From: Chiloscyllium plagiosum
Taxonomy: Eukaryota
Reading direction: 5' to 3'
Length of the DNA stretch: 64,000 nucleotides
NCBI RefSeq assembly: GCF_004010195.1
Contig: NC_057730.1
Span: forward strand, 32,961,152-33,025,151
Shown here piece after piece: positions 29,001-58,163 of this stretch. The first letter of the stretch is position 1. Every line of letters starts with the position of its first letter. A model generated the notes under the pieces. That model was not told the DNA's origin. It did not search any database and saw only the letters and a program-made list of their open reading frames with translations. The translations under genes were made by a program, and so were the position numbers.

Positions 29001-32000
29001 AAATTAAGAGTTTATCAGATGAGAAGATCTCACTGTTCACCCAATCTATAAGGGTTACTCAGTAATTTAGCTTTAATTCCATGATGCAGCAAAGGGAGAT
29101 TGATCCCATCAAGGTTTAACTGTACCACTCACACAAAACAGATTTATTTGAACCCAAACAGCTTTTCACATGAGATGAAACAAATGACTACAAATGATCA
29201 ACTGCAGATACCAGAGAAAGCGTGTGGGGTTCTGTAGATTTTTTAGCCCTAAAATTATGCATTTCTTGTGCATATCGTAACACTGGGTTTAAACTAGTGA
29301 AATCTACAAACCAGGAGGGAAAGTACAATAATTTCAGATAACATAAAAATCATGTGTAATTGGTATCTGCATCTTTTCCCCCTTCATGGTACAAGCATCC
29401 ACTAATATGACTAATACTTGTCTCTCCCTAGAGATCAGCCAAGACGCAAAAACAAAATTCACGTAGATTTACACAGTCTGCGTTCAAACAAATGACCACC
29501 CATATAGACCCTTTCCAACATATGGTCTTAGAGAATATAGTTTATTGTATTTAACAGTTTACATTTACATGGTCAATGCTAAGCTATGCATGGGTCAATA
29601 CAACATAGGGGATTGGCATACACTTAATTCACGGTTAATCGATTGTAGACATTGCTATAAAATTCAGGAAAAATTTACACACAAAATTTATAGTTTCAAT
29701 AACAGAGGTAGTTTTTATTTCCTAGCCGAATTGCTGAGGTAACAGTCTTTTTGTTTACAGCCATACACTGATTTGATGGTGCTAAAGGAGAGAACCTTCG
29801 TACCAATCACGGTATCCAGTGATCTGGGGCTTTTCATTCTTCTACCACCTTCTTTATTGGAGAGATGTTCAAAGCCATCAGAGGTGAAATAACCCATCCG
29901 GCATTCACTACATCCCAGATTTAAAAAAAAACAAATAGCTCTGATTTTATCTTGCTGTATTTTCAAGGCTGACTGAGGTAGACGAGCATTATGGTAGCTA
30001 GGTGAGGCTGTCGAGGGACTCCCCTTCCATCTTCCCCATATCACTCACTCTTTACAGGATATTCAGCATATATTAATGTTTCAAGTTACTAACATTTACA
30101 CATAAAATACAATATTTTTAATGACAATATAAATGCATTTGAAAATGTAACTTTATGCAAAATATACAATGCATTACTGTAAATTTGCACTGGATAACTT
30201 GTGGGACAATTACAGATTAGTGCAACATTTAGTACAATTAAACTTTGCAATGAATTAAATTTGCAGGGAATAAACACCACTAACAGCAAAAAAAAACATT
30301 TTCTACCTTTGTAAGCTGGGCCAGAGAGATAGATGTTCCAGAGTCATCAATCTGTTAATGGAAGAATTAAATACAGACATTCACATTTAACCATGATAAG
30401 GCACATATTTCAAACCCAAATAGACAGTCTGGTCATTACTCACATTTTAGTAACAAACTCACCTGAGTAAACATTCTTTCAGAATATGCACAGTTAGTGT
30501 ACATGCATTGAGTCTGTGTGTTGGGGGAGGGGGGAATTAAGAAAAAAGTTCACACTATAATGAAATGCTCTTAAATACAACTTTTGTAATCTGACTATAC
30601 TTTAATAGATGAACAGATGAAAAACAGTACGAGCTTAACTCTAAAGCAGAAGTGACTTTACATAAAGCTGCTACACAGATTTACAAAAGGATGTAAATAC
30701 TTTGCTGAAGTATATCAATTGGGNNNNNNNNNNNNNNNNNNNNNNNNNNNNNNNNNNNNNNNNNNNNNNNNNNNNNNNNNNNNNNNNNNNNNNNNNNNNN
30801 NNNNNNNNNNAAGGAGGAGGGGGAGAGAAGGGGATGGGGCGGGAGAGTGAGAGGGGAGGGAGAGGGCAGGGCAGTGAACAGGTTGCTATTGGAGAGTGAA
30901 GCAAAGTGTCAGCTCCATTTAGAGAAACAGTCATACAGCACTGAAAGAGACCCTTACAATGTTTTGAGCTGCTAAGGATGTAGTGATGACAATGGGGTTC
31001 AAAATAAGCAAGATCCAAAACCACAGTCCAGTGATTGCAAGTTTAATTGGGGTCATAATTTTAACCCAGACAATTTCCTATTTATACATTTGAATGTGGT
31101 GGGGACATTAATCCCAAGCTACAGAATAAGTTCATTCATGTAAGTTGACTACTTCTCATTTAAGGTAGATCACAAAAAAGTGAGGCTGAAACAAGTTTGG
31201 CGCAATAAACCCATGTAATCCATCCATACAAGCTTTTATTGATAGTGGGAAGTGCTATACAAGAATATTGCTTGCAAGGATGGCAGATGTTCTCAGTGCA
31301 CTCTATTTCGATTTGGTACCATGAAACAGACTAGTAGCAATTCCACATTTCAAATACAATGAAATGGCTTTTGCCATGAAACACTACTTTACATGAAAAT
31401 AAAAATAATCAGTTGATGCCTGAATTTAAAGAATAATATCTACATGTATTGTCTATTAGATTTTTTCTTCTGCTGTTACTCCGTCACTTGTCAATGATGA
31501 TATTTCTGACTTTTATTGAATTGTACAACTGAAGTCCTGTGGTCTAGTTCACGCATTATCTCAATCATAGAAGAACAGCACAGAATGAGGAAACAACATG
31601 TCCTTTAATTGCACGAGCAACAACAGTGAGTGTTTAAACTACCCTCTCTGGAGCAGACAGTAATAGGTACTCTTGAAAACAATAGTGTTCTTTTAGAGTA
31701 GCAGACTAACTCTGGATCAAGACACAGGTTGTTAGCGTATTACCTGCTGCACAATACGACTACATCATGAATTGGGATTCAAAAACAAAAATCAGCAGGA
31801 CAGCAAACACTGAATCAAAGCAGAATATGAAATCATTCAGGTGAAATGAATTAGAGGGAGTTTGAAATGAACATTAGAGGTTGCACCATGTCAATTGGAT
31901 ATAATTTACCCCGTTCATGCACTCCATCCCTACCTGGTGTGATACAGAAACAAATCTACAAAACAGTAAAAATTTAGAATCGGGCGCTTGTGGCATAGTG

Positions 32001-41000: not shown

Positions 41001-44000
41001 CAAGTTATTTTTAGACTGAGGGGTTAAGAATCTTAAGGGAATTCACTGAAATTTAAAAGTTTCACATTGTATCGTCACTGAACAGTTAACAAGTTACAGA
41101 TAATTTATTATTTCTAAACATGGAAACCTTCATACTCCAATAGTTTAACATATGACAATAGCACTGCCATATATTAAAACATGAAAACAACAGCTTCTGA
41201 ATTAATGGCTGAGATGTGGGCTTTGTGCCCAACATTAATGGCTGACATGTCTGTCAGTCATATTAGTGTGGATAAAACATTAATTACAGGCAGAGTATCA
41301 CCATAAAAATAGAACCCAGGGTATTCTTTTGTACCCCCTTACAGTACATGAGAAAGATATCACAAACTAAACAGTAGCTTGGGACAGGTAACGTGATAAC
41401 AAAATACTTCAAACGCCAAAATAAAATGCCTAGTTCCTGTCTCAAGTTAATTTCTACCATAACTTTAAGAAAATGGAATATTCATGAATTTGTAGCTTCA
41501 GAAAGTAAAAAGGCCGGTAGTTGGCAGAGCGTAGCAATCAAAGTGAACAGTACATGAACAAAAGGCAATAAGGGTTAATAGTTGGGTATATTATGAAGAA
41601 AATCAGGTTTTTAAATAGATCAGATTTTAAACAAGGATTTGAAAGCAATTCCTTCAAATGAAACTCAGCTTCCTCTTCCTTTTGCATCAAATATCCCACT
41701 TTATACATTTGGTTATTCCATTACCACCACTAAACACTGACCTCGCTGAGCTTTCCCTGAAGTCTGGCAACTAGGTCTGTAACCTCTTTCTCTTGCCTTC
41801 CCCTGCTGCCTCCGTGAGCAAAAGGATAAAACTTGATAAAACAGAATGAAGGAAAACTATGAATTCAAAAAACTGCAGAAAATGTGAACAGAGAAACAGA
41901 TCAAGACAAAGTAGAAAACAGTGGCACAAATACATCGCAAATGAGGTGAACATTGCTGAGTGATGGCTACTGAACATTACCACGGCAAATACTGATATAT
42001 AAAAGCCAAGTAAAGCCAGACATGTCTATAAATGAAAAAAAGTTAGAGCTTCCATCTTAGGGAAACAAACATACCATTTATACCTTACTGTTGAAAAGTA
42101 CTAAAGTTAATTATTTACTGGTTAACTTATCTTCAATACTGAGGATTTACTTTGCTTTATAAATTGCAACATGAATTTTAAACATGTTCCTTTGCAAGAA
42201 ATAATGTCAAGTGCACCCAAGAAATTTGCTAGTTGTGGTGAGGCAACAGCAAGATCATGGAAAAAAATTAACCTATAATGAAAGATTTCAACCCTTGTAT
42301 AGATGCTGTCACCCTGATAGATTAATCTAAGTATAAGAACTCCTCCAGTGCAAACTTGTCTCAATGGGCAATCTTTTCTTTCAAAAAATGCTTTCTGTAC
42401 ACAAGGCTGAGGTCATCTTAGACTGTGGTAAATTTAATAAAATTTGACTAATCTATACTTAGTTTAAATAATCTGATAAACATTTGAGCACCAAATGATC
42501 TCTCTCAATGCTGTAATCCTGTTTTCTCCACACACTCTTTGCTGCCTTTCATATTCTTAAAAAAAAAACTGTTATATTCGCAACCCCTGTGGAACAGAAT
42601 TCCACAGAGTCACTACTCAGTGAAGAAATTCTTCCTCATCTCAGTTCTAAGTGGCCTACCCCATAACTCGAGGCTATGACTCTGGCACCTGGACATCCTG
42701 AAAAGGGGAAACATCCTCTCTACATCTAGCCTGCCCAGTCACCTTAGAATTTTATATATTTCAATCAGATCTGTCTTCATCCTTCTTAACTCTAGTGATT
42801 ACAGCCCGGACAAATAATTTGCTCCTTCTGTCCCCTGTAGGAATGATGAACTGGAATCAAGAGGATTACTATTCTCTTCCTCAGGTGATCCAAGCCAAAC
42901 ACTAGAGTAGCCTGCAACATGCTGTGTTCAACGCAGTAGGCTCAATGCTTCTTTCTGCGTCTTTTTTACATTGCAACATTGTTAAAAGTTGAATAGTTGG
43001 TCTTTCAGCAAGATAGTTCGATGTTTAACTAGATTTTTCAGGTCTTGTCCATTGGATAAGACACTGAAGCCCAGTCACTGATTTTCTCCATTGGTTCAAG
43101 AAAATGCTCAAGATTGCACAATATAATTGAATACAGGAAGAAGCTCTCTGAACTTAAAACATTCCTCCTCCAAACAATAAAAAAAAAGTTGTTCATTTCT
43201 CTCAATGTTTGTGGGATTTTGTTCAAAAAAGTGGCTGCAGCACTCTGATGGCCAACAACCAGGCCACTTTGAAACAAACTTTTGTGAAGCACTTGAAGAT
43301 CTGACAAGAGAAACAATATGCCAATATATTATTAGATATTATGAAGATGTATCAAGAACATACTTATCTTTTTATAACTGACACTATAACATTTTTTGTA
43401 GTGGAAAGACTGAGAAAACGGGGAGTGTACTACCCTACTAGTCAGTGCATTTTTCAATTCATGCCCAAGCCGCAGGAAAACGAGCCTTTCATTTTTTTAA
43501 TGGAGTCAGTGGACAAAGACCACTGAATGGATTATATTCTGCTTGTTTCTATAGCTCATAAGGTCTTGGCTTTCTGGATTTTAAAAAACTATGCATGCAG
43601 AAATTTAACAGCTTGGTTAATACCATAATTAGAGTAGAAAATGTAGTGCATCCACCAGTGGTTTACTCCACTAAACCAGAGAATGCTGAGAATTCTAAAA
43701 TTCATATGAGCTCAGAAATCTCAGTGCAAGATGTATGGAACTTCAAGCATGGGTGCTATACATTGTACTGAGCTGTAAAAGTGTTCAATGTATACAAGAA
43801 AAAAATTTGAAGTCCATCCAAAGAGCATGGCCTTTTATTTGATCTTACTTATTTCTTTGAAATTTACAGTGGATTTTAAACAAGATCGAAACAACTATAA
43901 TCTTGTGTACTGGCTCCAAGTAAAGTAATGCACAGATAAAAACCTTTTTTACACAACCTAGAATTTACCTGGGCCGCAATAAAAAGAACAACTTTTACAG

Positions 44001-47000
44001 CAAACCACCCATGCACATGATTTAATCAAAATATAAGTTGGGCACTGGCTTTTGCAACAGCCCCTTTCAGGCTAAGTTGAAACATTCAGGAACGCAGTCC
44101 CAAGCCTCAAAAGTAATTCATGGGAATTAGCAAAATTTAATATAAAAAGATTCTAAACTATTTATGAAATTTTAGAATTAAACTAAAGGCTTGGTTTGAT
44201 TTTCAATTTTGACTGTTAATAGGTATAAGTTAAAGTACACTATGTTCACAATGTGCATCATAGGCAAAAACTATACAATGAGATAATTTTAGGGATTTTA
44301 TAAAATGGCTCAAACAAAACAGGATTCAAACTTTAATTCACTGGTAACACAGACAGGCAAACCAGGCAGAATTAAGCTTAATTTTTTAAAGTCAGGGGAT
44401 ATGTATGGTGTGCAAGTGACTAATCATGTACATATGGTATGGTATTGTTCTATTATCACTACAGACAACAATACCAATTTAGTTTAAGTAACACCACAAA
44501 AGCTGAATGACTTGTATGTATGTATTTGTAAAAGGTATGTAGCCAAAAGGTAAAACAAAAGAAGTCGAATATTTGTTACTGAATGATACTTGTCAAATTT
44601 TCTTTTGTTTGCTCTCAAAGTTCAAAGATGTGCTGTTATGAAAATAAAATTTTAAGAAATATAGTGTTAAAATTGTAATTCAACATCTGCTTTGTATTAA
44701 GTAGAAGAGTCTAATGTGGTTTTTTCCATGTGCCTTATCATAGTGTAAAGAAACCAGTTTCATCATTAAAAACATACCTATTAAATCATAAAAAAGTTGA
44801 GTGATACAATGTGAAATGGAAGATAATACACTTCAAACATTCTTTATTTGAATAAACAGAATGCACATAATAGCCTATACACATGTAATACTAAAGACAG
44901 ACATCACATGAACACTTTCATGTTCACCAAAGCAAACTGTTGAACCACAAACTCTGAAAATCATACACTGATCTGTACAACATCAAGTCATACAGAAATT
45001 AACTCGCATTTTCAATGTGAAATACAGTGCATTATTTTGCACCATCAGGTCACACATACAGATAATATGTGCAGATATGGGCAATTATTTCTAAATATTA
45101 TCCATCAGTATTTTTAAATACTACGAATGCATTTTTGTAGGTATTACAGAACATACCCTGGTAAGATGCGCATCACGGCATATTTAAATTTATGTATTAT
45201 TTGGAAAACTATTTTTAAAATGGTTAACATTGTCTAATGACTATTTCAAAATGGCAACTTAGATGTAAAATCAAGAAAAGAAAAAAAGGTTCAGATTGTA
45301 TTTTTGTTTTACATACTGCTTTCGATGCTCCACTTGCTGGTTCAGAACGATCTCTAGAAAGTAGAAGATGATGTTACAGTCACATGTTTTGAATTCATAT
45401 GTTGAACATAAAATACACCTTTCACAACAAGATTAACAAAGAAAATATTTTCAATACAGAATATTCCTATTATGGATTCTCAACCAAAAATATCACCAGT
45501 GTGCTTCGAAAATAGTCAAAGATTAGTCATGAGAAAACAGTTGAATAGAATTTCAAAATTAGCAGTGTCACAACTAGAATAATGCCGCTATAATCAAGCC
45601 CCACTTTCATATGCTGTTACCGACACTGAAAATTCCAATTTAATCAAGAGGATGACCAACGTGCCGAACTGCTATAAAGCACAGAAAAAAAAATTAATTC
45701 CTGTGAATTGTTTAAGATTAGATTACTTAGAGTGTAGAAACAGGCCCTTCGGCCCAACAAGTCCACACCAACCCCTACATTTACCCCTTCACCTAACACC
45801 ACGGGCAATTTAGCATGGCCAATTCACGTAACCTGCACATTTTTGGACTGTGGGAAGAAACCGGAGCACCCGGAGGAAACCCACACAGACACGAGGAGAT
45901 TGTGCAAACTCCACACAGTCAGTTGCCTGAGGCGGGAATTGAACCCGGGTCTCTGGCACTGTGAGGCAGCAGTGCTAACCACTGTGCCGCCCACAAACTT
46001 TGTAACACAAACTTTTAACAAAGGCAAACAAATGTTTCTAACATACCTTTGTGCAATTTAAACTATACCCCTCAGAAACTCCAAATATACATACTTATTG
46101 ATGATCGAGACAAGAGACAGCCAGTTCAACACATCAAGCAATATTGAAAATATCAGCAAGGTATGGAAGAACAGAAGTCTAGATTTCAAAATTTGGTTAA
46201 ATTGTCTGTTAATTGCTTTTGGATTTTCGCAACAGTTGCAATACAGTCTGTCAAGTGATTATCTTTGTCATTTCGATAGTTGGTCCAGTGGGCCTCGTTC
46301 TTTTCTGGTGACAGAGAACCATACAGCAACATTTCCAATTCACAGGCGCTGATATTACTGGCTACCCTGCACTTACAGCTTTGGAACAAACTGTAATTAA
46401 AACAGAGGGCTTTTGACAAGTAGTCTTAAAGACTCTCAGTACCACACTGTCTGAAAGTATCTCCCTTACTACTTTGCAAAGCAAACATGTTTTGCTTAGC
46501 TAAAATAAAATGTGCACCATGTGATTTTTCCAAGTTGCAAAACTCTCCTGGTATTTTAACAACAGAGCTGCACAACCTGCAGTCTGGTTAAGGAAAATTA
46601 TGTGGTGTTGTGGTTCTGTTCGCCGAGAGGGGAATTTGTGTTGCAGACGTTTCGTCCCCTGTCTAGGTGACATCCTCAGTGCTTGGCAGCCTCCATTGAA
46701 GCGCTTCTGTGATCTTTCCTCCAGCATTTGTAGTGGTTTGAATCTGCCGCTTCCGGTTGTCAGTTCCAGCTGTCCGCTGCAGTGGACAGCTGGAACTGAC
46801 AACCGGAAGGAGCAGATTCAAACCACTACAAACGCCAGAGGAAAGATCACAGAAGCGCTTCACAGGAGGCTGCCAAGCACTGAGGATGTCACCTAGACAG
46901 GGGACGAAACGTCTGCAACACAAATTCCCAGCTCGGCGAACAGAACCACAACAACGAGCACCCGAGCTACAAATCTTCTCACAAACTTTGAAAATTATGT

Positions 47001-50000: not shown

Positions 50001-53000
50001 AAATTTCAGATACTTACATGACAAATGTTTTGCCAGCAGATTTCACACCTCCAATTGGAATCCTTTTTATAATCACAGATGAATTCTTGGGGATTAAAGC
50101 ATTATCGTCTGTATATTCTGTTAAGAGTTAAAGTAAGCATTAATTTACAGGTGTCAGATACAAGTACCACTCAGACACTAGAAATATTTTGTACAACTGC
50201 AGAATGCATGTCAAATTCATTCAAGTGCTTTAATAATGTCAAAACTATATGGGTCAGACATAGTCTTCTTTCTGATTAACCTTTAAACAGAGAAAGCAAC
50301 ATTGAAGGGCTAAAACCACCTCATGAACAGTATTTTCTTTATCAGCTGTGTCAACTCTAATATTTGTTGAACAAGGAACACTTTTATTATTTACAGCTCT
50401 GATGGCTAGTTTTAATACTGCAACTTGTGAACTGGCAAAACTTCTGTGCAAAAGGAATAAGATACTCACCCCCAATGGGAAAAGCCTCATGACATGCACC
50501 CAGATCACAGTACAATTTCCCCAACTCTCTGGCTCATTTGTACATTGAAAATGATGTAGATAGCTTTCAAATCTTTAATCAAATCGATCTTTATATAGTT
50601 CTTTTTCTATTTGATCATACGCACTTTGACATTCTTACATTTAATGGTCAATATTTAACAACCTACATACCAATCAAGACCACAAAAAAGTCTGAATCTC
50701 TCAGTGAAGAGTAAAATGCTGACACAAATTTCCATTTTATAGATTTTTATAACTCTCAAAGTGACCAGCTTAAATTATAAAGTTGTAGTATATGAGGTTG
50801 TATGACACTTTTCTTGATTGTGTATTTTAACTTCTGGATTCTTGAAAATGCATTTCGGAATATTCTTGAATGCTTCCAGATGACATGTCCAATGACATGA
50901 TAACCTGGAATAATTTAATCTTCAATGACTTGCGTGATATCACAAGCCAAATAAATAGTATAATTAAAGTGCGCAATTTTCAAAACTTATTGAATTTCTT
51001 CTGATTTACTGTGTCAGCACAAGATTTATTTTATCAGTTAACCTGGTATAAGACACATATGTCAAAAGTGTGCAAGAAAATTGGAATGTAACATGGAATG
51101 TAACAATGCTGTTTTGATAGACATTGCAAATCAAGGTGTTTCTCATAGCTGTTGCGAGGTCAGATTAATGTAGATTTAAAATAAATCATCTTTCCCAAGG
51201 TGATTTAAAAAAAATCAAACCAATTTCTGATTGATGGGTCAGCTCCCTAAACACATTTTCCTTCTCTTCCCTGCCAAACCTGAATTCTACTGCTTCAACT
51301 TCCTTGACTTGAGTACTCATTTTTAAATGGCATGGTGGCTCAGTGGTTAGCACTGCTGCCTCATAGCACCAGGGACCCAGATTCGATTCCAGCCTCGGGC
51401 AACTGTCTTGTGTGGAGTTTGCACATTCTCCACATGTCTGCGTGGGTGCTCTGGTTTCCTCCCACAATTCAAAGAGGTTAGGTGAACTGGCTATAGAGTT
51501 CAGGAATGCGTAGGATAGGTATATTAATCAGGGGTAAAAGTAAAATGGTCAGGGAATGGGTCCAGGTGGGTTACTCTTCAGAGGGCCGGCATAGACTTGT
51601 TGGGTCAAATGACCTGTTTCCACATTGTAGGGAGTCTTTGAACACTGTTCATTATTATATTTGGATTTTTTTTTCAATTGGGACTTCTCTGCACAATCAG
51701 TCTATGATTCAATCTGCATTAGAGCATGATAATATCCTGGTGATGATTAATAATTTATCACTTGCTTTTCTTACTAGCGCCTGCATCAAATTACTTTTTA
51801 AACCTGGTAATTTGGAATTCATCTCAACAAAACATGCTCTTCCTCGGAATTCATTGTCATCCCATTGCCCTCGAATCTCTCCCTTCCTATAAATTCCCCA
51901 GTTCTATTTATGCTTTGGACCGTGGAAGTGAGGCCATTTGCAAATTACTCAAGACCAGTTCCAATCACTCCTTGTACCCTTGCCATCTATATATCCTTTC
52001 CATGGTGCCAGCCATTTTTCGAGTGAGCTGGGGGAAAAAAAACTACCAATTATCTCAGTTCATTTAAAATTGTACTTCAAAAATCCTAGCCAGTTAACGT
52101 TTGTCCCTCCATGTCAAAATACTTGTGCAACTACATCTTTAATTCAACCTATGAAGTTCAATTTGCCATCAAACCCATTCACATCTTACACTGGCATGGT
52201 ATAGTCTACTCCTAGTCAGAGTAGATTTGAGGGGTTGGTGGCAAACAGTTTAATCATTGATCACTAACTTGCTGCACTACATAAAGTACAATTTTCTCAA
52301 CTACCAAGATAAAAGTCACTATTTTTGGATTATTGTCCTGGAATTCAAAAATAGTTCCCCCGCTTCTTTTCTTGGACAGCAAAGTGACCAATCTTAAGCT
52401 CCTCTACCCAACCCAGTAATGTTGACCTTTAATGTGCAAGGAGCTTATTGATTTCTTCACTCCCAATGTTAAGAACAAACAACGAGAAGACTTTTGTTCT
52501 AGTAGCCCACCAGATTAAACTGAACATCTTCCAATGACTTCCATTTGAAACCACGAACTTGTTTTTTGCCACTCTCCTTCATGCCACCCTTGCAACCTCT
52601 TGAAGTTAATCTTGACTTCTTGCTCCATCTATCCTACACCACTAAAATGGTGACCATTCAATGTTCACTGCTGATGCCCCTCTATTCTTATCAGTTGCAA
52701 TCTCCCCAAAAAAACTAAAACCCTGACATGTCTTGCCCTTGAAAACTTCTGCCACATTTCCAACCTCAAGATCCTCAGCAAAAGTCCTTGAGGAAAACAT
52801 CATTTTGCAATACCCATGTGGGTATCACTTAAAAGGTTAGATCATATAGGTTTTGACCCAGAGGGCAAAGATGGGAGGAGTGAAAGGGGAAGCTTAGGGC
52901 ACAGAACAGCCATAATCCTACTGAGCAGCATCAGAGGCTACAAGGTTAACTGCCTATTTCTGCTCCAAATTTCCCTTATGTTTCCACAACTATCACTGAA

Positions 53001-56000: not shown

Positions 56001-58163
56001 ATGAACTGGCTGCTTCCACCATATACACTGGCCAATTTGACAAATGAAACCAGTAGCATGAAAATTCTAATTTATGGTAGTGCTAAATATAATGATTTGC
56101 CTTCCAGGCATTCAGCAGGGGTAAACTGATCTTGCAGGAAATGATGTCAACAAGCAGTCTGATAACAAGGCCAGGCCAGATGAGATGTCAAAATGGGCAG
56201 TGAGGGATATACTGGTTTTATCAGCACACACGTGGAAACTAATATTGTGCCACAGATGATTCCAAGCTAATATTACAAGAGACTACACTTCTAGATCCTG
56301 TCAGACTCAACACAACATGAGAAGTTTTGTAGAACATTCAATGACTATGGCTACATTGGTAAAAGTGGAACTAAGCAAGGGTAATCTAAACTAACTGGAC
56401 CAGTGAAGCAAAATTATAGAGTCACAAAGTGGTACTGCATGGAAACAGATCCTTCAGTCCAACTAGTCTATTCCAACCAGATATTCTAAATTAATCAAGC
56501 CCCATTTGCCAGCATTTGGCCCATTCCTATTCAAATATCCATCCAGAGGCATTTTAAATGTCACTGTATCAGCGTCCACCCCTTCCTCTGGCAGCTCATT
56601 CCATGCACACATCACCCTCTGAGAAAAAGTTGCCCCTTAGATCCCTTATAAATCTTTATCCTCTCACCTTAAACTTATCCCCTCTAGTTTTTAAAAACTT
56701 GGCCATTCACCCTATCCATGCCCCTCATGACTTAATAAATTTCTAGATCACCCATTAGCATCCAACTTTCCAGGGAGGATAGTCCCAGCCTATTCAGCTC
56801 TCCCTATAGCTCAAACCCTCCAATCCTAGCAACATACTTATAAATCTTGTCTGCACTGTCAAGTTTAACAACATCTTTCCTATAGCAGGGAGACCAGAAC
56901 TGGGCAGTATTCCAAATGTGGCCTAACTAATGTCCTGTACATCTGCAAATGACATCCCAACTCCTAAACTTCACTACCCTGTCTTACTGACTCAACCTTC
57001 AAGGATTAGGAGATTGCCTTGGTTAACTAGTAAATGCTGCAGGCGGGTCAAAAGCAAAAAGTGCAGCATCGCCACAGTGATTGCTATTTCTGACTTATAG
57101 CAAAAAACTATAGAAATCAAATATTGCAAAATTCAGCACCATTGAAATATTAGGTCCAAATCTCTGTCATTCAACAACTTGTAACAAACTTCAGTAAAAT
57201 GACAGCATGTTTGACCTAGAATATTAAGGCCATACACACATTCTCTTCTTCCAAGATGACAGAATTTTCATTGTTGAGATCAAACATTCCAACAACAACT
57301 ATCTTAAAAATGCAGCAAATCAATTCCCACACAACTGAAGTCTTTAAAACAAGTCAATTTCCAACACAATATTTACAAATGCATTGGTATATCACAACTA
57401 TACGCCACGCAAAAATTAATCTCGAATCAATTATCAGTGCAGCCATCCATTTTTAAAACTGAGGTGTCTAAGATAATTCCAGCTGGATGCGAGAACATGA
57501 ACAAGGTTCCTACTAATTGCTACTTTATGCGCTACCAGTGCCTTCAGACCGTCATAGTCTGTCTAAAGGGCAGTCTTCGAGTCGGCGCAGCTGACAAGGG
57601 TAGATGACCTCCATGGAACATTAATTGAAAATTAAATTATTACATGATTGGTTTCTAAATGTGTCTCCGGAGGGCGAAAGGAGAGTTTGCAGATGACAAA
57701 GGACAAGGAATGCATTTTACTTATGGGGGTCGGGGATATAGATGCCGCCGTAGACTTAAAAATTCGCTATAAAACTGCAGCGAAAATTAAAGTGATTATG
57801 CTGGAAAAGTTACGTCGTAACCGGGTTTAATGCGTCTGGTTTCGTTTGTCTCAACGTATAAGATGTCCTTACGAATTCAGACCATTCCAGCAAACATACG
57901 CCATCTTGTCTAGCATACAAGATAGAAGCAACACTGAACAAAAGGACAGAGAAGTAAACATTATTTAAATGCAAATAAGTGGTTGGGGTTAATTTACCTT
58001 CCTTAGTTTGTGCGTTGGTGATCTGTAAATCGCAATCTGCCGCCTTCAGCTTCTCTCTGGCCATGATCGTCTTCTTTAGATCACTCAAAGAAATATGAAG
58101 CCCATCGAAAGTGACCGTGTCATAGTTCAGTTTAGAAGAAAATTTGTAATGTACACACGACAT
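3456..58163 (-). CDS. RBBP6: RBBP6 E3 ubiquitin ligase / pre-mRNA 3'-end processing factor, spliced CDS span (17 coding exons, 1785 aa)
   Basis: Exons join in frame with GT-AG borders (166+100+37+45+89+97+140+173+104+377+91+61+58+360+102+1785+1573=5358 nt). N-terminus MSCVHYKFSSKLNYDTVTFDGLHISL, zinc knuckle, RING, RS domain and KKHKKH tail match vertebrate RBBP6. Confidence 0.97.
5742..7038 (-). mobile_element. Penelope-like element, degenerate RT/GIY-YIG region plus terminal repeat, in intron 17
   Basis: Frameshifted peptides FHSGLKFTWTISDTS, DKDRTPLVLTFHP...LRIQRIILHHF, VANHFNSPSHS; terminus CTGATGAatggcttatgcctGAAACatcga near 5815-5845. Confidence 0.85.
7169..8953 (-). CDS. RBBP6: RBBP6 exon 17 homologue (RS domain and Rb-binding region)
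   Basis: Open from ctcag| at 8953 (SRSRSYSGSSFSGSSYSYSKSRS...ERERYREWER), in frame with ORF 7129..8166, to GSTLVDYT with AAG|gttaga; 1785 nt. Confidence 0.94.
9581..9698 (-). repeat. Short Penelope-terminus-type repeat
   Basis: cagatgctgga...ctgctggagaaactcagcatgtctggcagtatctg...cttcttcagaa; a related copy lies on + at about 48840-48918. Confidence 0.5.
9888..9989 (-). CDS. RBBP6: RBBP6 exon 16 homologue (102-nt cassette exon)
   Basis: EKKKSKLDEFTNDFAKELMEYRKIQKERRRSYS; ttttag|...AAG|gtaagt; symmetric 102 nt. Confidence 0.95.
10540..12410. mobile_element. Cluster of decayed LINE fragments (CR1 and L2/Crack-like) in intron 15
   Basis: GPQGSVLG motif near 11580; catctacaaggcataagccaagaatgtgctggaatactc motif shared with 38320-38365; esterase-like stretch 10790-10920. 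Confidence 0.6.
12960..13790 (-). mobile_element. GC-rich non-autonomous retroelement-like insertion, family uncertain
   Basis: Sharp GC rise, internal ccaggagtccc/ccaggagctcc repeats, A-rich linker 13672-13730; overlapping ORFs have no recognisable domain. Confidence 0.45.
14428..14787 (-). CDS. RBBP6: RBBP6 exon 15 homologue (proline-rich)
   Basis: PLPPGVPPPQFPPQFPPGQPPPAGFSIPPPGFPPAP...QAPPLSREEFYREQRRLKE; cctag|...|gtgagt; 360 nt. Confidence 0.94.
15698..16033 (+). mobile_element. HE1/V-SINE-type tRNA-derived SINE, young
   Basis: A box cagtggttagc, B box gggttcaattccc, core tgtgtggagtttgcac...ccggtttcctccc, taatc tail; 5' head partly duplicated. Confidence 0.9.
16035..17395 (+). mobile_element. 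Decayed CR1 LINE, RT and 3' end
   Basis: FGKVPHKRLLGKIK, WKAVTSGVLQGSVLGPQL, GHLVETYK, VVKLWNSPPQKA. Confidence 0.8.
17595..17652 (-). CDS. RBBP6: RBBP6 exon 13
   Basis: GQPMRSSGVRPPGNRPGWE; ttcag|...|gtaagt; 58 nt; preceded by a 75-nt intron. Confidence 0.9.
17728..17788 (-). CDS. RBBP6: RBBP6 exon 12
   Basis: GYQVPVLGHPASHGQSIPTT; ttcag|...CAG|gttcgt; 61 nt. Confidence 0.9.
18876..19274. mobile_element. Penelope-like inverted-repeat (palindromic) fragment
   Basis: Arms aagtctctgcaggtgaccaaggatgtta / taacatccttggtcagctgcagagactt around 19070; outer gtccaac / gttggac. Confidence 0.7.
19307..19397 (-). CDS. RBBP6: RBBP6 exon 11
   Basis: ttcag|...AAG|gtaagt; ELNKTVVVTATTGTITSNPSMSTSSTSVVK; 91 nt, phase 2 to 0 fits neighbours; peptide divergent. 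Confidence 0.82.
19440..19662. mobile_element. MITE (Tc1/mariner/pogo-like, TA target duplication)
   Basis: TA|caggtcgttctgctataac ... gttaaagaagaactacctg|TA imperfect TIRs; 223 bp. Confidence 0.75.
19880..21130 (+). mobile_element. Highly decayed CR1 LINE
   Basis: Remnants gacttccagatagaatttgatgaagtccc, ttgagtactgtactcattct and a CR1-like 3' end. Confidence 0.55.
22051..22427 (-). CDS. RBBP6: RBBP6 exon 10 (Pro/Gln/Thr-rich)
   Basis: AVNNFKNETGYTKRARKQ...PPKHEEGD; tgcag|...|gtaagt; 377 nt. Confidence 0.93.
22753..22856 (-). CDS. RBBP6: RBBP6 exon 9 (RING, second half)
   Basis: CIRTSLLESEEHTCPTCHQTDVSPDALIANKFLRQ; 104 nt. Confidence 0.95.
23157..23329 (-). CDS. RBBP6: RBBP6 exon 8 (RING, first half)
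   Basis: EAYAQGKKEKPPFLPEEPSSSSEEEDPIPDELLCLICKDLMMDAVVIPCCGNSYCDD; 173 nt. Confidence 0.96.
23645..23784 (-). CDS. RBBP6: RBBP6 exon 7
   Basis: DKNFEAVPRIKKSTGIPRSFMVEVDDPNMKGAMLTNTGKYAIPTID; cag|...|gtaagt; 140 nt. Confidence 0.95.
24440..24536 (-). CDS. RBBP6: RBBP6 exon 6 (CCHC zinc knuckle)
   Basis: YMKKPLGPPPPTYTCFRCGKPGHYIKNCPTNG (C-x2-C-x4-H-x4-C); 97 nt; donor GGG|gtgggt. Confidence 0.95.
24638..24726 (-). CDS. RBBP6: RBBP6 exon 5
   Basis: TANLAEANASEEDKIKAMMTQSGQEYDPV; cag|...|gtaagt; 89 nt. Confidence 0.95.
30307..30351 (-). CDS. RBBP6: RBBP6 exon 4
   Basis: aacag|...|gtagaa; IDDSGTSISLAQLTK; 45 nt. Confidence 0.93.
30724..30810. other. Assembly gap (87 N)
   Basis: Run of N flanked by G-rich sequence. 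Confidence 0.99.
32480..33480 (-). mobile_element. Decayed CR1 LINE
   Basis: tttcagaccctaactactc, aaatttcatctgccacctatcc and other CR1 3' remnants. Confidence 0.5.
34180..34600 (+). mobile_element. Decayed CR1 LINE 3' end
   Basis: gaagaatgagggcgactctattgaagcatat (RMRGDLIE-like), agaactaaggggcactg. Confidence 0.55.
36594..37208 (-). mobile_element. Older V-SINE-type SINE interrupted by a younger SINE
   Basis: Host breaks at caaactccacacagata (36842) and resumes at gtcacccaaggctggaattgaacccagg (37141). Confidence 0.85.
36843..37140 (+). mobile_element. Young HE1/V-SINE-type SINE, 5'-truncated, nested
   Basis: Near-identical to 15735-16030; (TAATC)n tail. Confidence 0.9.
37862..38058. mobile_element. 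Penelope-terminus inverted repeat
   Basis: ctggaaaagcacagatcaggcagcatccgaggagcag / ctgctccttggatgctgtctgaccggctgcgcttttccag; same family as the terminus at 5742-5850. Confidence 0.7.
38262..38815 (+). mobile_element. L2/Crack-like LINE 3' end
   Basis: YKAQVRSVMEYSPLVWMSAAPT; 3' end taaatgctggtcagccagcgacacccacatccca; related pieces at 37220-37620, 38060-38260 and 60500-62550. Confidence 0.75.
42575..42820 (-). mobile_element. CR1 LINE 3' fragment
   Basis: gaattccacagagtcactactcagtgaagaaattcttcctcatctcagttctaagtggcc. Confidence 0.65.
44843..44848 (-). promoter_or_regulatory. Candidate intronic polyadenylation signal (AATAAA) for the short isoform
   Basis: First minus-strand AATAAA I found after the read-through stop (about 375 nt downstream), followed by GT/T-rich sequence. 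Confidence 0.55.
45224..45316 (-). CDS. RBBP6: Alternative 3' extension of exon 3 giving the short DWNN-only isoform (isoform 3-like)
   Basis: Read-through of the exon 3 donor gives VCKTKIQSEPFFLFLILHLSCHFEIVIRQC* (TAA 45224-45226); resembles the human isoform 3 tail VCKNTISHFF... as recalled. Confidence 0.7.
   Translation of the reverse strand, partial: VCKTKIQSEPFFLFLILHLSCHFEIVIRQC
45317..45353 (-). CDS. RBBP6: RBBP6 exon 3
   Basis: tttctag|AGATCGTTCTGAACCAGCAAGTGGAGCATCGAAAGCA|gtatgt; IDRSEPASGASKA; 37 nt, phase 2 to 0. Confidence 0.9.
45715..45992 (-). mobile_element. HE1/V-SINE-type SINE with internal deletion
   Basis: Reverse complement of the 15698 family; head at 45992, tail at 45715. 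Confidence 0.9.
46607..46989. mobile_element. Penelope-like palindromic element with 14-bp TSD
   Basis: 173-bp inverted arms 46607-46779 / 46780-46952 with no spacer; TSD GAAAATTATGTGGT at 46593-46606 and 46990-47003. Confidence 0.88.
46877..46916 (+). ncRNA. Minimal type I hammerhead ribozyme motif (mirror copy on - at 46643-46682)
   Basis: GCA-CTGAGGA-T-GTCACCT-AGAC-AGGGGAC-GAAAC-GTC-TGC: CUGAnGA and GAAA cores, stem II, GUC cleavage triplet, 3-bp stem I. Confidence 0.6.
50018..50117 (-). CDS. RBBP6: RBBP6 exon 2 (end of DWNN, di-glycine motif)
   Basis: cag|...|gtaagt; EYTDDNALIPKNSSVIIKRIPIGGVKSAGKTFV; 100 nt; absent from the ORF track. Confidence 0.95.
51329..51640 (+). mobile_element. 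V-SINE-type SINE, older
   Basis: ggcatggtggctcagtggttagcactgctgcctca...tgtggagtttgcacattctcc. Confidence 0.85.
52500..56400. mobile_element. Scattered ancient L2-like LINE fragments in intron 1
   Basis: tgcaacctttgacagttgaccattcc (FDTVDH-like), tctgcaccgtcag-like PQGS remnant near 53190, aagcaccttgggatatt 3' end near 54605. Confidence 0.45.
56415..56970 (-). mobile_element. CR1/HER1-like LINE 3' end
   Basis: Similar to 477-1083 (gaccagaactgggcagtattccaaatgtggcc; ctctgagaaaaagttgcccct). Confidence 0.8.
57998..58163 (-). CDS. RBBP6: RBBP6 exon 1 coding part (DWNN domain)
   Basis: ATG at 58163; MSCVHYKFSSKLNYDTVTFDGLHISLSDLKKTIMAREKLKAADCDLQITNAQTKE; donor AAG|GTAAAT; 166 nt. Confidence 0.97.

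Follow-up and report, generated by a model that had tools for sequence, protein, structure and literature searches.

The 64,000-nt stretch of Chiloscyllium plagiosum DNA analysed here, called the window below, probably carries the shark counterpart of human RBBP6 isoform 3, with read-through of a weak splice donor giving a 131-residue DWNN-only protein and with cleavage likely just after the AATAAA at 44848-44843, an arrangement that would cut the output of full-length RBBP6 and likely supply a competitor to it. The shark short isoform as such is already known in outline and annotated in detail, since an identical RefSeq model exists and Pugh 2006 calls the short form pan-vertebrate. What our analysis adds is the weakness of the donor, a 162-nt block in which no substitution is listed, and tails that occupy shifted frames. 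We found no paper that discusses a shark or invertebrate RBBP6 short form or these RefSeq models.

RBBP6, which is required for the cleavage of mRNA 3' ends, lies on the minus strand of the window, as read from its translation, and is identified by the presence of PF08783 on identical and near-identical proteins together with zinc knuckle and RING exons. The parts of the gene on which the argument depends are the following.

57998..58163, 166 nt, minus strand: RBBP6 coding exon 1, DWNN/UBL residues 1-55, with 52/55 residues identical to human isoform 3 in translation.
50018..50117, 100 nt, minus strand: exon 2, encoding in translation the remaining UBL with R74 and GG78-79.
45317..45353, 37 nt, minus strand: exon 3, the 5' part of the composite terminal exon.
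45224..45316, minus strand: read-through coding tail, 30 aa and TAA, identical to XP_043567660.1.
30307..30351, minus strand: exon 4, the splice partner on the full-length path.
24744-23155, minus strand: RBBP6 zinc knuckle and RING exons.

Exons 1-3, continued through the exon 3 donor (GCA/GTATGT), encode 131 aa with the tail VCKTKIQSEPFFLFLILHLSCHFEIVIRQC and end at a TAA at 45226-45224. A first-pass annotation of the window had proposed this product, which is borne out as the same protein as RefSeq XP_043567660.1 of Chiloscyllium plagiosum, and all of its coordinates stand, including those of the AATAAA at 44843-44848 and of the next one at 43834-43839. The parallel that it drew with human isoform 3 (NP_116015.2) also holds: the same three exons and phase are used, the read-through starts VCK at residue 102, the UBL is identical at 76 of 81 positions with D43 and R74 kept, and a poly(A) site lies in intron 3 in both species, that of the shark being predicted. 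The two forms differ in that the human tail has 17 aa and the shark tail 30 aa, from another frame of homologous DNA, in that shark intron 3 contains two cassette exons seen in elasmobranch models, and in that inhibition has been shown for the human protein whereas the shark form is known here from sequence and a few reads. The exon 3/intron 3 segment at 44700-45360 is single copy; its one match in the shark's own genome is the locus itself, and no processed copy marking the cleavage site was found there. The surrounding stretch had been described as repeat-free, and 43300-46500 indeed contains no tandem repeat.

The short form is older than the split between sharks and bony vertebrates, because it is found on both sides of it, in sharks and skates as well as in bony vertebrates; the first-pass annotation had suggested conservation in a cartilaginous fish and, for the feedback arrangement, such an age. 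The motif VCKTKIQSEPF is invariant in 9/9 elasmobranch read-through sequences from 10 named species (two Chiloscyllium, Hemiscyllium, Stegostoma, Rhincodon, Mustelus, Carcharodon, Cetorhinus, Leucoraja and Amblyraja), after which the tails diverge, with lengths of 13-30 aa. It occurs in the RefSeq models XP_043567660.1, XP_060696735.1, XP_072415239.1, XP_048408397.1, XP_020366725.1, XP_078096429.1, XP_041062469.1, XP_055507423.1 and XP_032896625.1, the XP models being automatic predictions titled 'RBBP6-like' or 'isoform X'. A tail starting VC and then K, N or R is present in 62 of 101 collected proteins that contain the exon-2 motif, and named VC-tailed equivalents come from reedfish, sturgeon, eels, zebrafish, frogs, snakes, other reptiles, birds and mammals, with curated entries for human (NP_116015.2), mouse (NP_778188.1) and zebrafish (NP_001003873.1). 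Of the groups named earlier for a cross-species comparison (sharks, skates, chimaera and tetrapods), sharks, skates and tetrapods have VC tails in their proteins, whereas 0/2 Callorhinchus short models among the matches listed had the VCK tail. Among the same matches, in which clusters hide members, no lamprey or hagfish short form appeared, the one hagfish protein being full-length. The preliminary analysis of Pugh 2006 (PMC1360078) already places the short form in all vertebrates and not in invertebrates, at 118-150 aa with a poorly conserved tail.

Several further observations came from the same collection of proteins. A teleost RBBP6 paralogue (P0106, P0232-P0241) also has a VC read-through form, so both teleost duplicates seem to retain the intron-3 site. 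Birds carry many divergent 'RBBP6-like' short copies (P0069, P0160-P0177), several per species and some with the isoform-3 tail, which are possibly processed or duplicated copies. Exon-1 read-through ORFs, which made up most of the unnamed protein matches, were dropped as gene calls on genomic fragments, and when metagenome contigs were scanned for the donor-region pattern, in search of vertebrate host DNA, the five matches obtained were all unrelated, microbial-looking chance hits.

The exon 3 donor and the intron behind it have features that would suit competition between cleavage and splicing. The relevant elements are these.

45311..45319, minus strand: weak exon-3 donor GCA/GTATGT, U1 duplex -3.4 kcal/mol.
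45281..45316, minus strand: conserved first 36 nt of intron 3, A-rich with ACAATCT and a U-run, encoding VCKTKIQSEPF; likely an RNA element.
41742..41831, minus strand: 30-codon cassette exon within intron 3, with 84-97% identity to RefSeq isoforms of skate and zebra shark.
30463..30513, minus strand: 17-codon cassette exon immediately before exon 4, matching zebra and whale shark isoforms.

By U1 duplex energy, the exon 3 donor is the weakest of the 11 scored, at -3.4 kcal/mol against -5.4 to -12.2 kcal/mol for the others. Intron 3 measures 14,965 nt and exon 4 begins at 30351, which upholds the earlier figure of a 15-kb intron and refines it, in that two cassette exons used in the RefSeq models of other sharks lie inside. 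RBBP6 intron 3 thus shows the combination of weak donor and large intron typical of CSTF3 and PCF11. How far the intronic site of CSTF3 is used depends on a weak donor in a large intron, and the feedback there has been tested experimentally (PMC3708835), as it has for the autoregulatory poly(A) site in PCF11 intron 1 (PMC6428223). RBBP6 intron 3 resembles CSTF3 intron 3 and PCF11 intron 1 as a large early intron of a 3'-processing gene with a weak donor, a poly(A) site and conserved sequence nearby. Both cassette exons are in frame. The 30-codon cassette (41831-41742) is common to sharks and skates and unseen in the bony-vertebrate short forms listed, and its use would leave the poly(A) site in competition with an intron of about 3.5 kb. 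An assembly gap of 87 bases (N) lies near the end of intron 3, at 30724-30810.

The candidate poly(A) site lies within the first 500 nt of this intron, in the following setting.

44843..44848, minus strand: AATAAA poly(A) signal, 469 nt beyond the donor and 375 nt beyond the stop; bin 44812-44895 is where read depth ceases.
44878..45060, minus strand: six UGUA upstream of the hexamer, putative CFIm-type elements, 6 in 212 nt where the intron average predicts 1.64.
44812..44833, minus strand: putative cleavage zone, TA/CA at 16, 19, 26 and 31 nt from the hexamer; no depth below 44812 in the poly(A) run X19.
44763..44802, minus strand: U-rich segment, putative downstream element.
44768..44929, minus strand: 162-nt block round the hexamer, free of listed substitutions in a distant organism, E.
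43834..43839, minus strand: second AATAAA, no sign of use, with zero depth in 4/4 runs.

Taken alone the hexamer is weak evidence for a poly(A) site: the chance of an AATAAA within the first 474 nt is 32-35% at the density of the intron or of the window. It rises above chance because a read pile-up stops there, because the flanking sequence is conserved and because of its UGUA and T context; none of the other 11 AATAAA in intron 3 has as many UGUA upstream (4 in 150 nt) or as much T downstream (51%) as the one at 44848-44843.

The reads in question come from X19, a poly(A) single-cell run of which about 2% was read, which shares its species label with the best DNA runs and was aligned to 43300-45800. 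Mean depth is 4.9 in bin 44812-44895 and 5.5 in 44896-44979, declines to 0.2-0.45 at exon 3, and is zero in 18/18 bins across 43300-44811 and in 3/3 repeat-free intron-2 bins; nearly all of it derives from pairs whose first mate is antisense to the gene. This profile is that of 3'-end tags ending just past the hexamer. In 84-nt bins of one sample, with some 6-10 read pairs as estimated from 1,523 aligned bases, a transcript appears to cover the beginning of intron 3 and to end at the intronic hexamer. The first-pass annotation had tied its proposal to transcripts ending at this point, and reads from a poly(A) library do end in the hexamer bin, while the second AATAAA, at 43839, has zero depth in all four runs. 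Among the end clusters and loose ends listed for X19 there was no site with at least five read ends and no poly(T) loose end at the hexamer; repeat reads at the edge of the stretch filled the tables, and 86 more loose-end rows lie outside the listing. That edge, 45705-45800, belongs to an abundant intron-2 repeat and attracts thousands of reads from other copies, many with poly(T) loose ends, so that the repeat family appears to be transcribed and polyadenylated. X20, from the same sample as X19, gave no aligned reads, even on the repeat, and so speaks neither for nor against the site. A search of sequencing runs listed none on record as RNA among those carrying the segment, which likewise weighs neither way.

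Reads of this kind could also arise if oligo-dT primed on the A-rich hexamer within a retained or slowly spliced intron 3, the real 3' end lying further downstream or being nonexistent. The hexamer does sit in an A-rich window, AAATAAAGAA, with 8/10 A, and the read ends are known at bin level; moreover, contigs from two guessed-RNA runs of other organisms, X2 and X14, extend past the site, the one from X2 as far as 44395 (depth 3.3) and the one from X14 over 2,984 nt (depth 28.8). Against such priming, six further segments of 43300-45800 have 8/10 A, several of them including longer A runs, and lack a pile-up, with roughly one read at 45311 and zero at 44610, 44387, 43858, 43501 and 43373. The sequence round the hexamer is conserved, and the human orthologue is a defined 1.1-kb mRNA (PMC1360078). 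We accordingly hold priming from the A-rich tract to be improbable. The extension of the X2 and X14 contigs, which speaks against a single fixed end, may reflect nascent RNA, longer 3' UTRs or DNA. Both contigs begin at 45346, 30 nt before the donor, a start that would fit a branch in the assembly graph where spliced and read-through RNAs coexist.

Conservation near the donor and the poly(A) site, as judged from one distant contig and from back-translation tests, seems to act on RNA rather than on peptide. Over 45281-45346 the contig of organism E is identical to the shark at 63/66 nt; some 120 nt of divergence follow before the alignment resumes across 44584-45162, where 32 substitutions are listed and none of the 32 falls in 44768-44929 (P 0.0005 under a uniform model and 0.026 when clumped changes are merged; the listing leaves out 7 of 39 differences and some X14 indels). 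Read two bases off, the shark DNA after the donor gives KNTI-stop-TFF, against KNTISHFF in human, hawk and rattlesnake, and read one base off it gives KYNLNLFF, against KKNLTLFF in eel. When tail peptides were back-translated and compared with shark DNA, the human tail fitted at 21/24 nt in a shifted frame, a fit reached by 1 of 2,104 GT-start controls, that one overlapping the site itself, and by 4 of 3,000 dinucleotide shuffles. The corresponding shuffle counts were 37/3,000 for eel, 36/3,000 for the frog Ranitomeya and a weak 157/3,000 for mouse; Staurois, sturgeon, zebrafish, Denticeps, reedfish and a platyfish paralogue gave no signal (178-1698 of 3000 shuffles), so that 3 of 10 tails support shifted-frame homology. 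We place the conservation at the RNA level because the shark DNA has to be read in shifted frames to match the tails of amniotes and eel; a conserved RNA element beside the donor is likely what is kept, with the tail peptide as its by-product. The earlier caution that VC is dictated by the donor itself is right for those two residues; conservation extends beyond them, but apparently in the RNA.

That VCKTKIQSEPF is unchanged in 9/9 shark and skate sequences might instead be taken to mean that the tail peptide itself is functional in elasmobranchs. Against this, amniotes, a frog and eel use other frames of the homologous DNA, and the human tail is protease-sensitive and poorly conserved (PMC1360078). 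With 63/66 nt identical in organism E, there is also little scope for synonymous change, and we regard a function of the tail peptide as very improbable.

What the short protein would do in the shark is suggested by its human counterpart. Human isoform 3 arises from the intron-3 poly(A) site, competes for CstF and inhibits cleavage (Di Giammartino 2014, PMC4201286), and the UBL binds the nuclease domain of CPSF73, a human D43K/R74E mutant failing to activate cleavage (PMC8887125). The shark short form retains the UBL with D43 and R74, the RNA-binding domains being absent from it. By analogy, slow U1 commitment at the weak donor of the 15-kb intron would let cleavage beat splicing in a share of transcripts, and intronic cleavage would both lower full-length RBBP6 and release a UBL-only competitor. 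This 131-aa protein, keeping D43 and R74, would bind CPSF73/CstF without RNA-binding domains, and the share of the short form would climb with 3'-processing activity, as in a negative feedback. The short protein is thus likely to act as a brake on full-length RBBP6 in the shark. Autoregulation of RBBP6 was offered as merely 'an attractive idea' in the 2014 human paper (PMC4201286) and is treated as established in a 2023 review (PMC7614891); in the available passages it is a proposal for RBBP6, whereas for CSTF3 and PCF11 the feedback is experimental. The literature considered also includes further reviews (PMC7471841, PMC11331416, PMC13226542) and a Drosophila paper (PMC4463644).

The intronic site could also be real and selected purely for early termination, as at CSTF3 and PCF11, the short protein being unstable or irrelevant. 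The spread of elasmobranch tail lengths (13-30 aa), with changes of frame following the U-run, would agree with this, as would the fit of amniote and eel tails to shark DNA in other frames and the existence of several distinct intron-3 and intron-4 short forms side by side; the CSTF3 short isoform, as described in the available passages of PMC3708835, has no apparent protein. RBBP6 differs from CSTF3 on exactly this point, as its short form is a whole folded domain in which, in the shark, D43 and R74 persist. Endogenous human isoform 3 protein has been detected and added isoform 3 inhibits cleavage, and since DWNN alone binds CstF (PMC4201286), the variable tail is no argument against a role for the protein. 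Termination without a role for the protein therefore appears to us unlikely, if less so than priming from the A-rich tract, and the brake remains the preferred reading.

A second DWNN-only family ends after exon 4, and its counterpart in the window is the start of intron 4 at 30306-29700 on the minus strand. Exon-4 read-through tails occur in zebra, whale, smooth-hound and basking shark, manakin, eel and a frog, and skates have alternative last exons after exon 4 (EVVEE, QRRW). Intron 4 of the window has a read-through stop near 30280, a VVEE-stop stretch near 29845 and hexamers at 30122, 29858, 29719 and 29546, and the exon-4 donor matches 5/9 consensus letters.

Whether the arrangement is older than vertebrates was approached through a representative-sequence protein search that yielded DWNN-only Logan ORFs, the query ending in the VC tail and so possibly favouring such matches. 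P0299 (119 aa) is 73% identical to Clavelina and Ciona; P0285 matches Apostichopus at 68% over 90 aa and is similar to coral and octopus, its placement being unsure; both have VC at residue 101-103. A tick-like group including P0308 and P0317 is 92-95% identical to Dermacentor, and one of its members occurs on 11 contigs. The tick ORFs still agree with full-length Dermacentor RBBP6 beyond an upstream junction at which a genome model ends; they part from it at the point that corresponds to intron 3 of vertebrates, where VC follows. In P0299, P0285, P0308 and P0317 the match to full-length RBBP6 ends at residue 100-103 and is followed by VC, and P0367-P0372 belong with these ascidian-, echinoderm- and tick-like ORFs. 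Among eight invertebrate-like short forms compared with full-length proteins, three lineages have VC, four have another V-dipeptide at a similar position (one of them a genome gene model) and one stops earlier.

VC in this phase demands a GTNTGY donor, in which the T at +4 is non-consensus. Tentatively, then, the DWNN-only brake may predate vertebrates, the same intron being read through behind a GTNTGY donor in ascidians, ticks and perhaps echinoderm-like animals, with selection keeping the donor RNA element (homologous between shark, eel and human in three frames) rather than the tail peptide; we consider this possible, though rather doubtful. The invertebrate-like ORFs may be partly spliced pre-mRNAs, which would look alike; no poly(A) tail was seen on these ORFs.

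For the shark itself the isoform is a small gain, one that firms up the 2006 all-vertebrate statement with named sequences and a few reads. If the weak donor, the 36-nt element and the poly(A) block are what is conserved, they would be the sequences to mutate in studying the RBBP6 autoregulation proposed in the human paper. Invertebrate short forms, if true, would contradict the published view, as given in the available passages of Pugh 2006 (PMC1360078) and of a 2012 review that describes invertebrates as having single isoforms (PMC3472776), that invertebrates have no short form. Should the ascidian and tick forms prove to be real mRNAs, RBBP6 would join CSTF3/su(f) as a cleavage-factor gene with a self-limiting intronic site across bilaterians.
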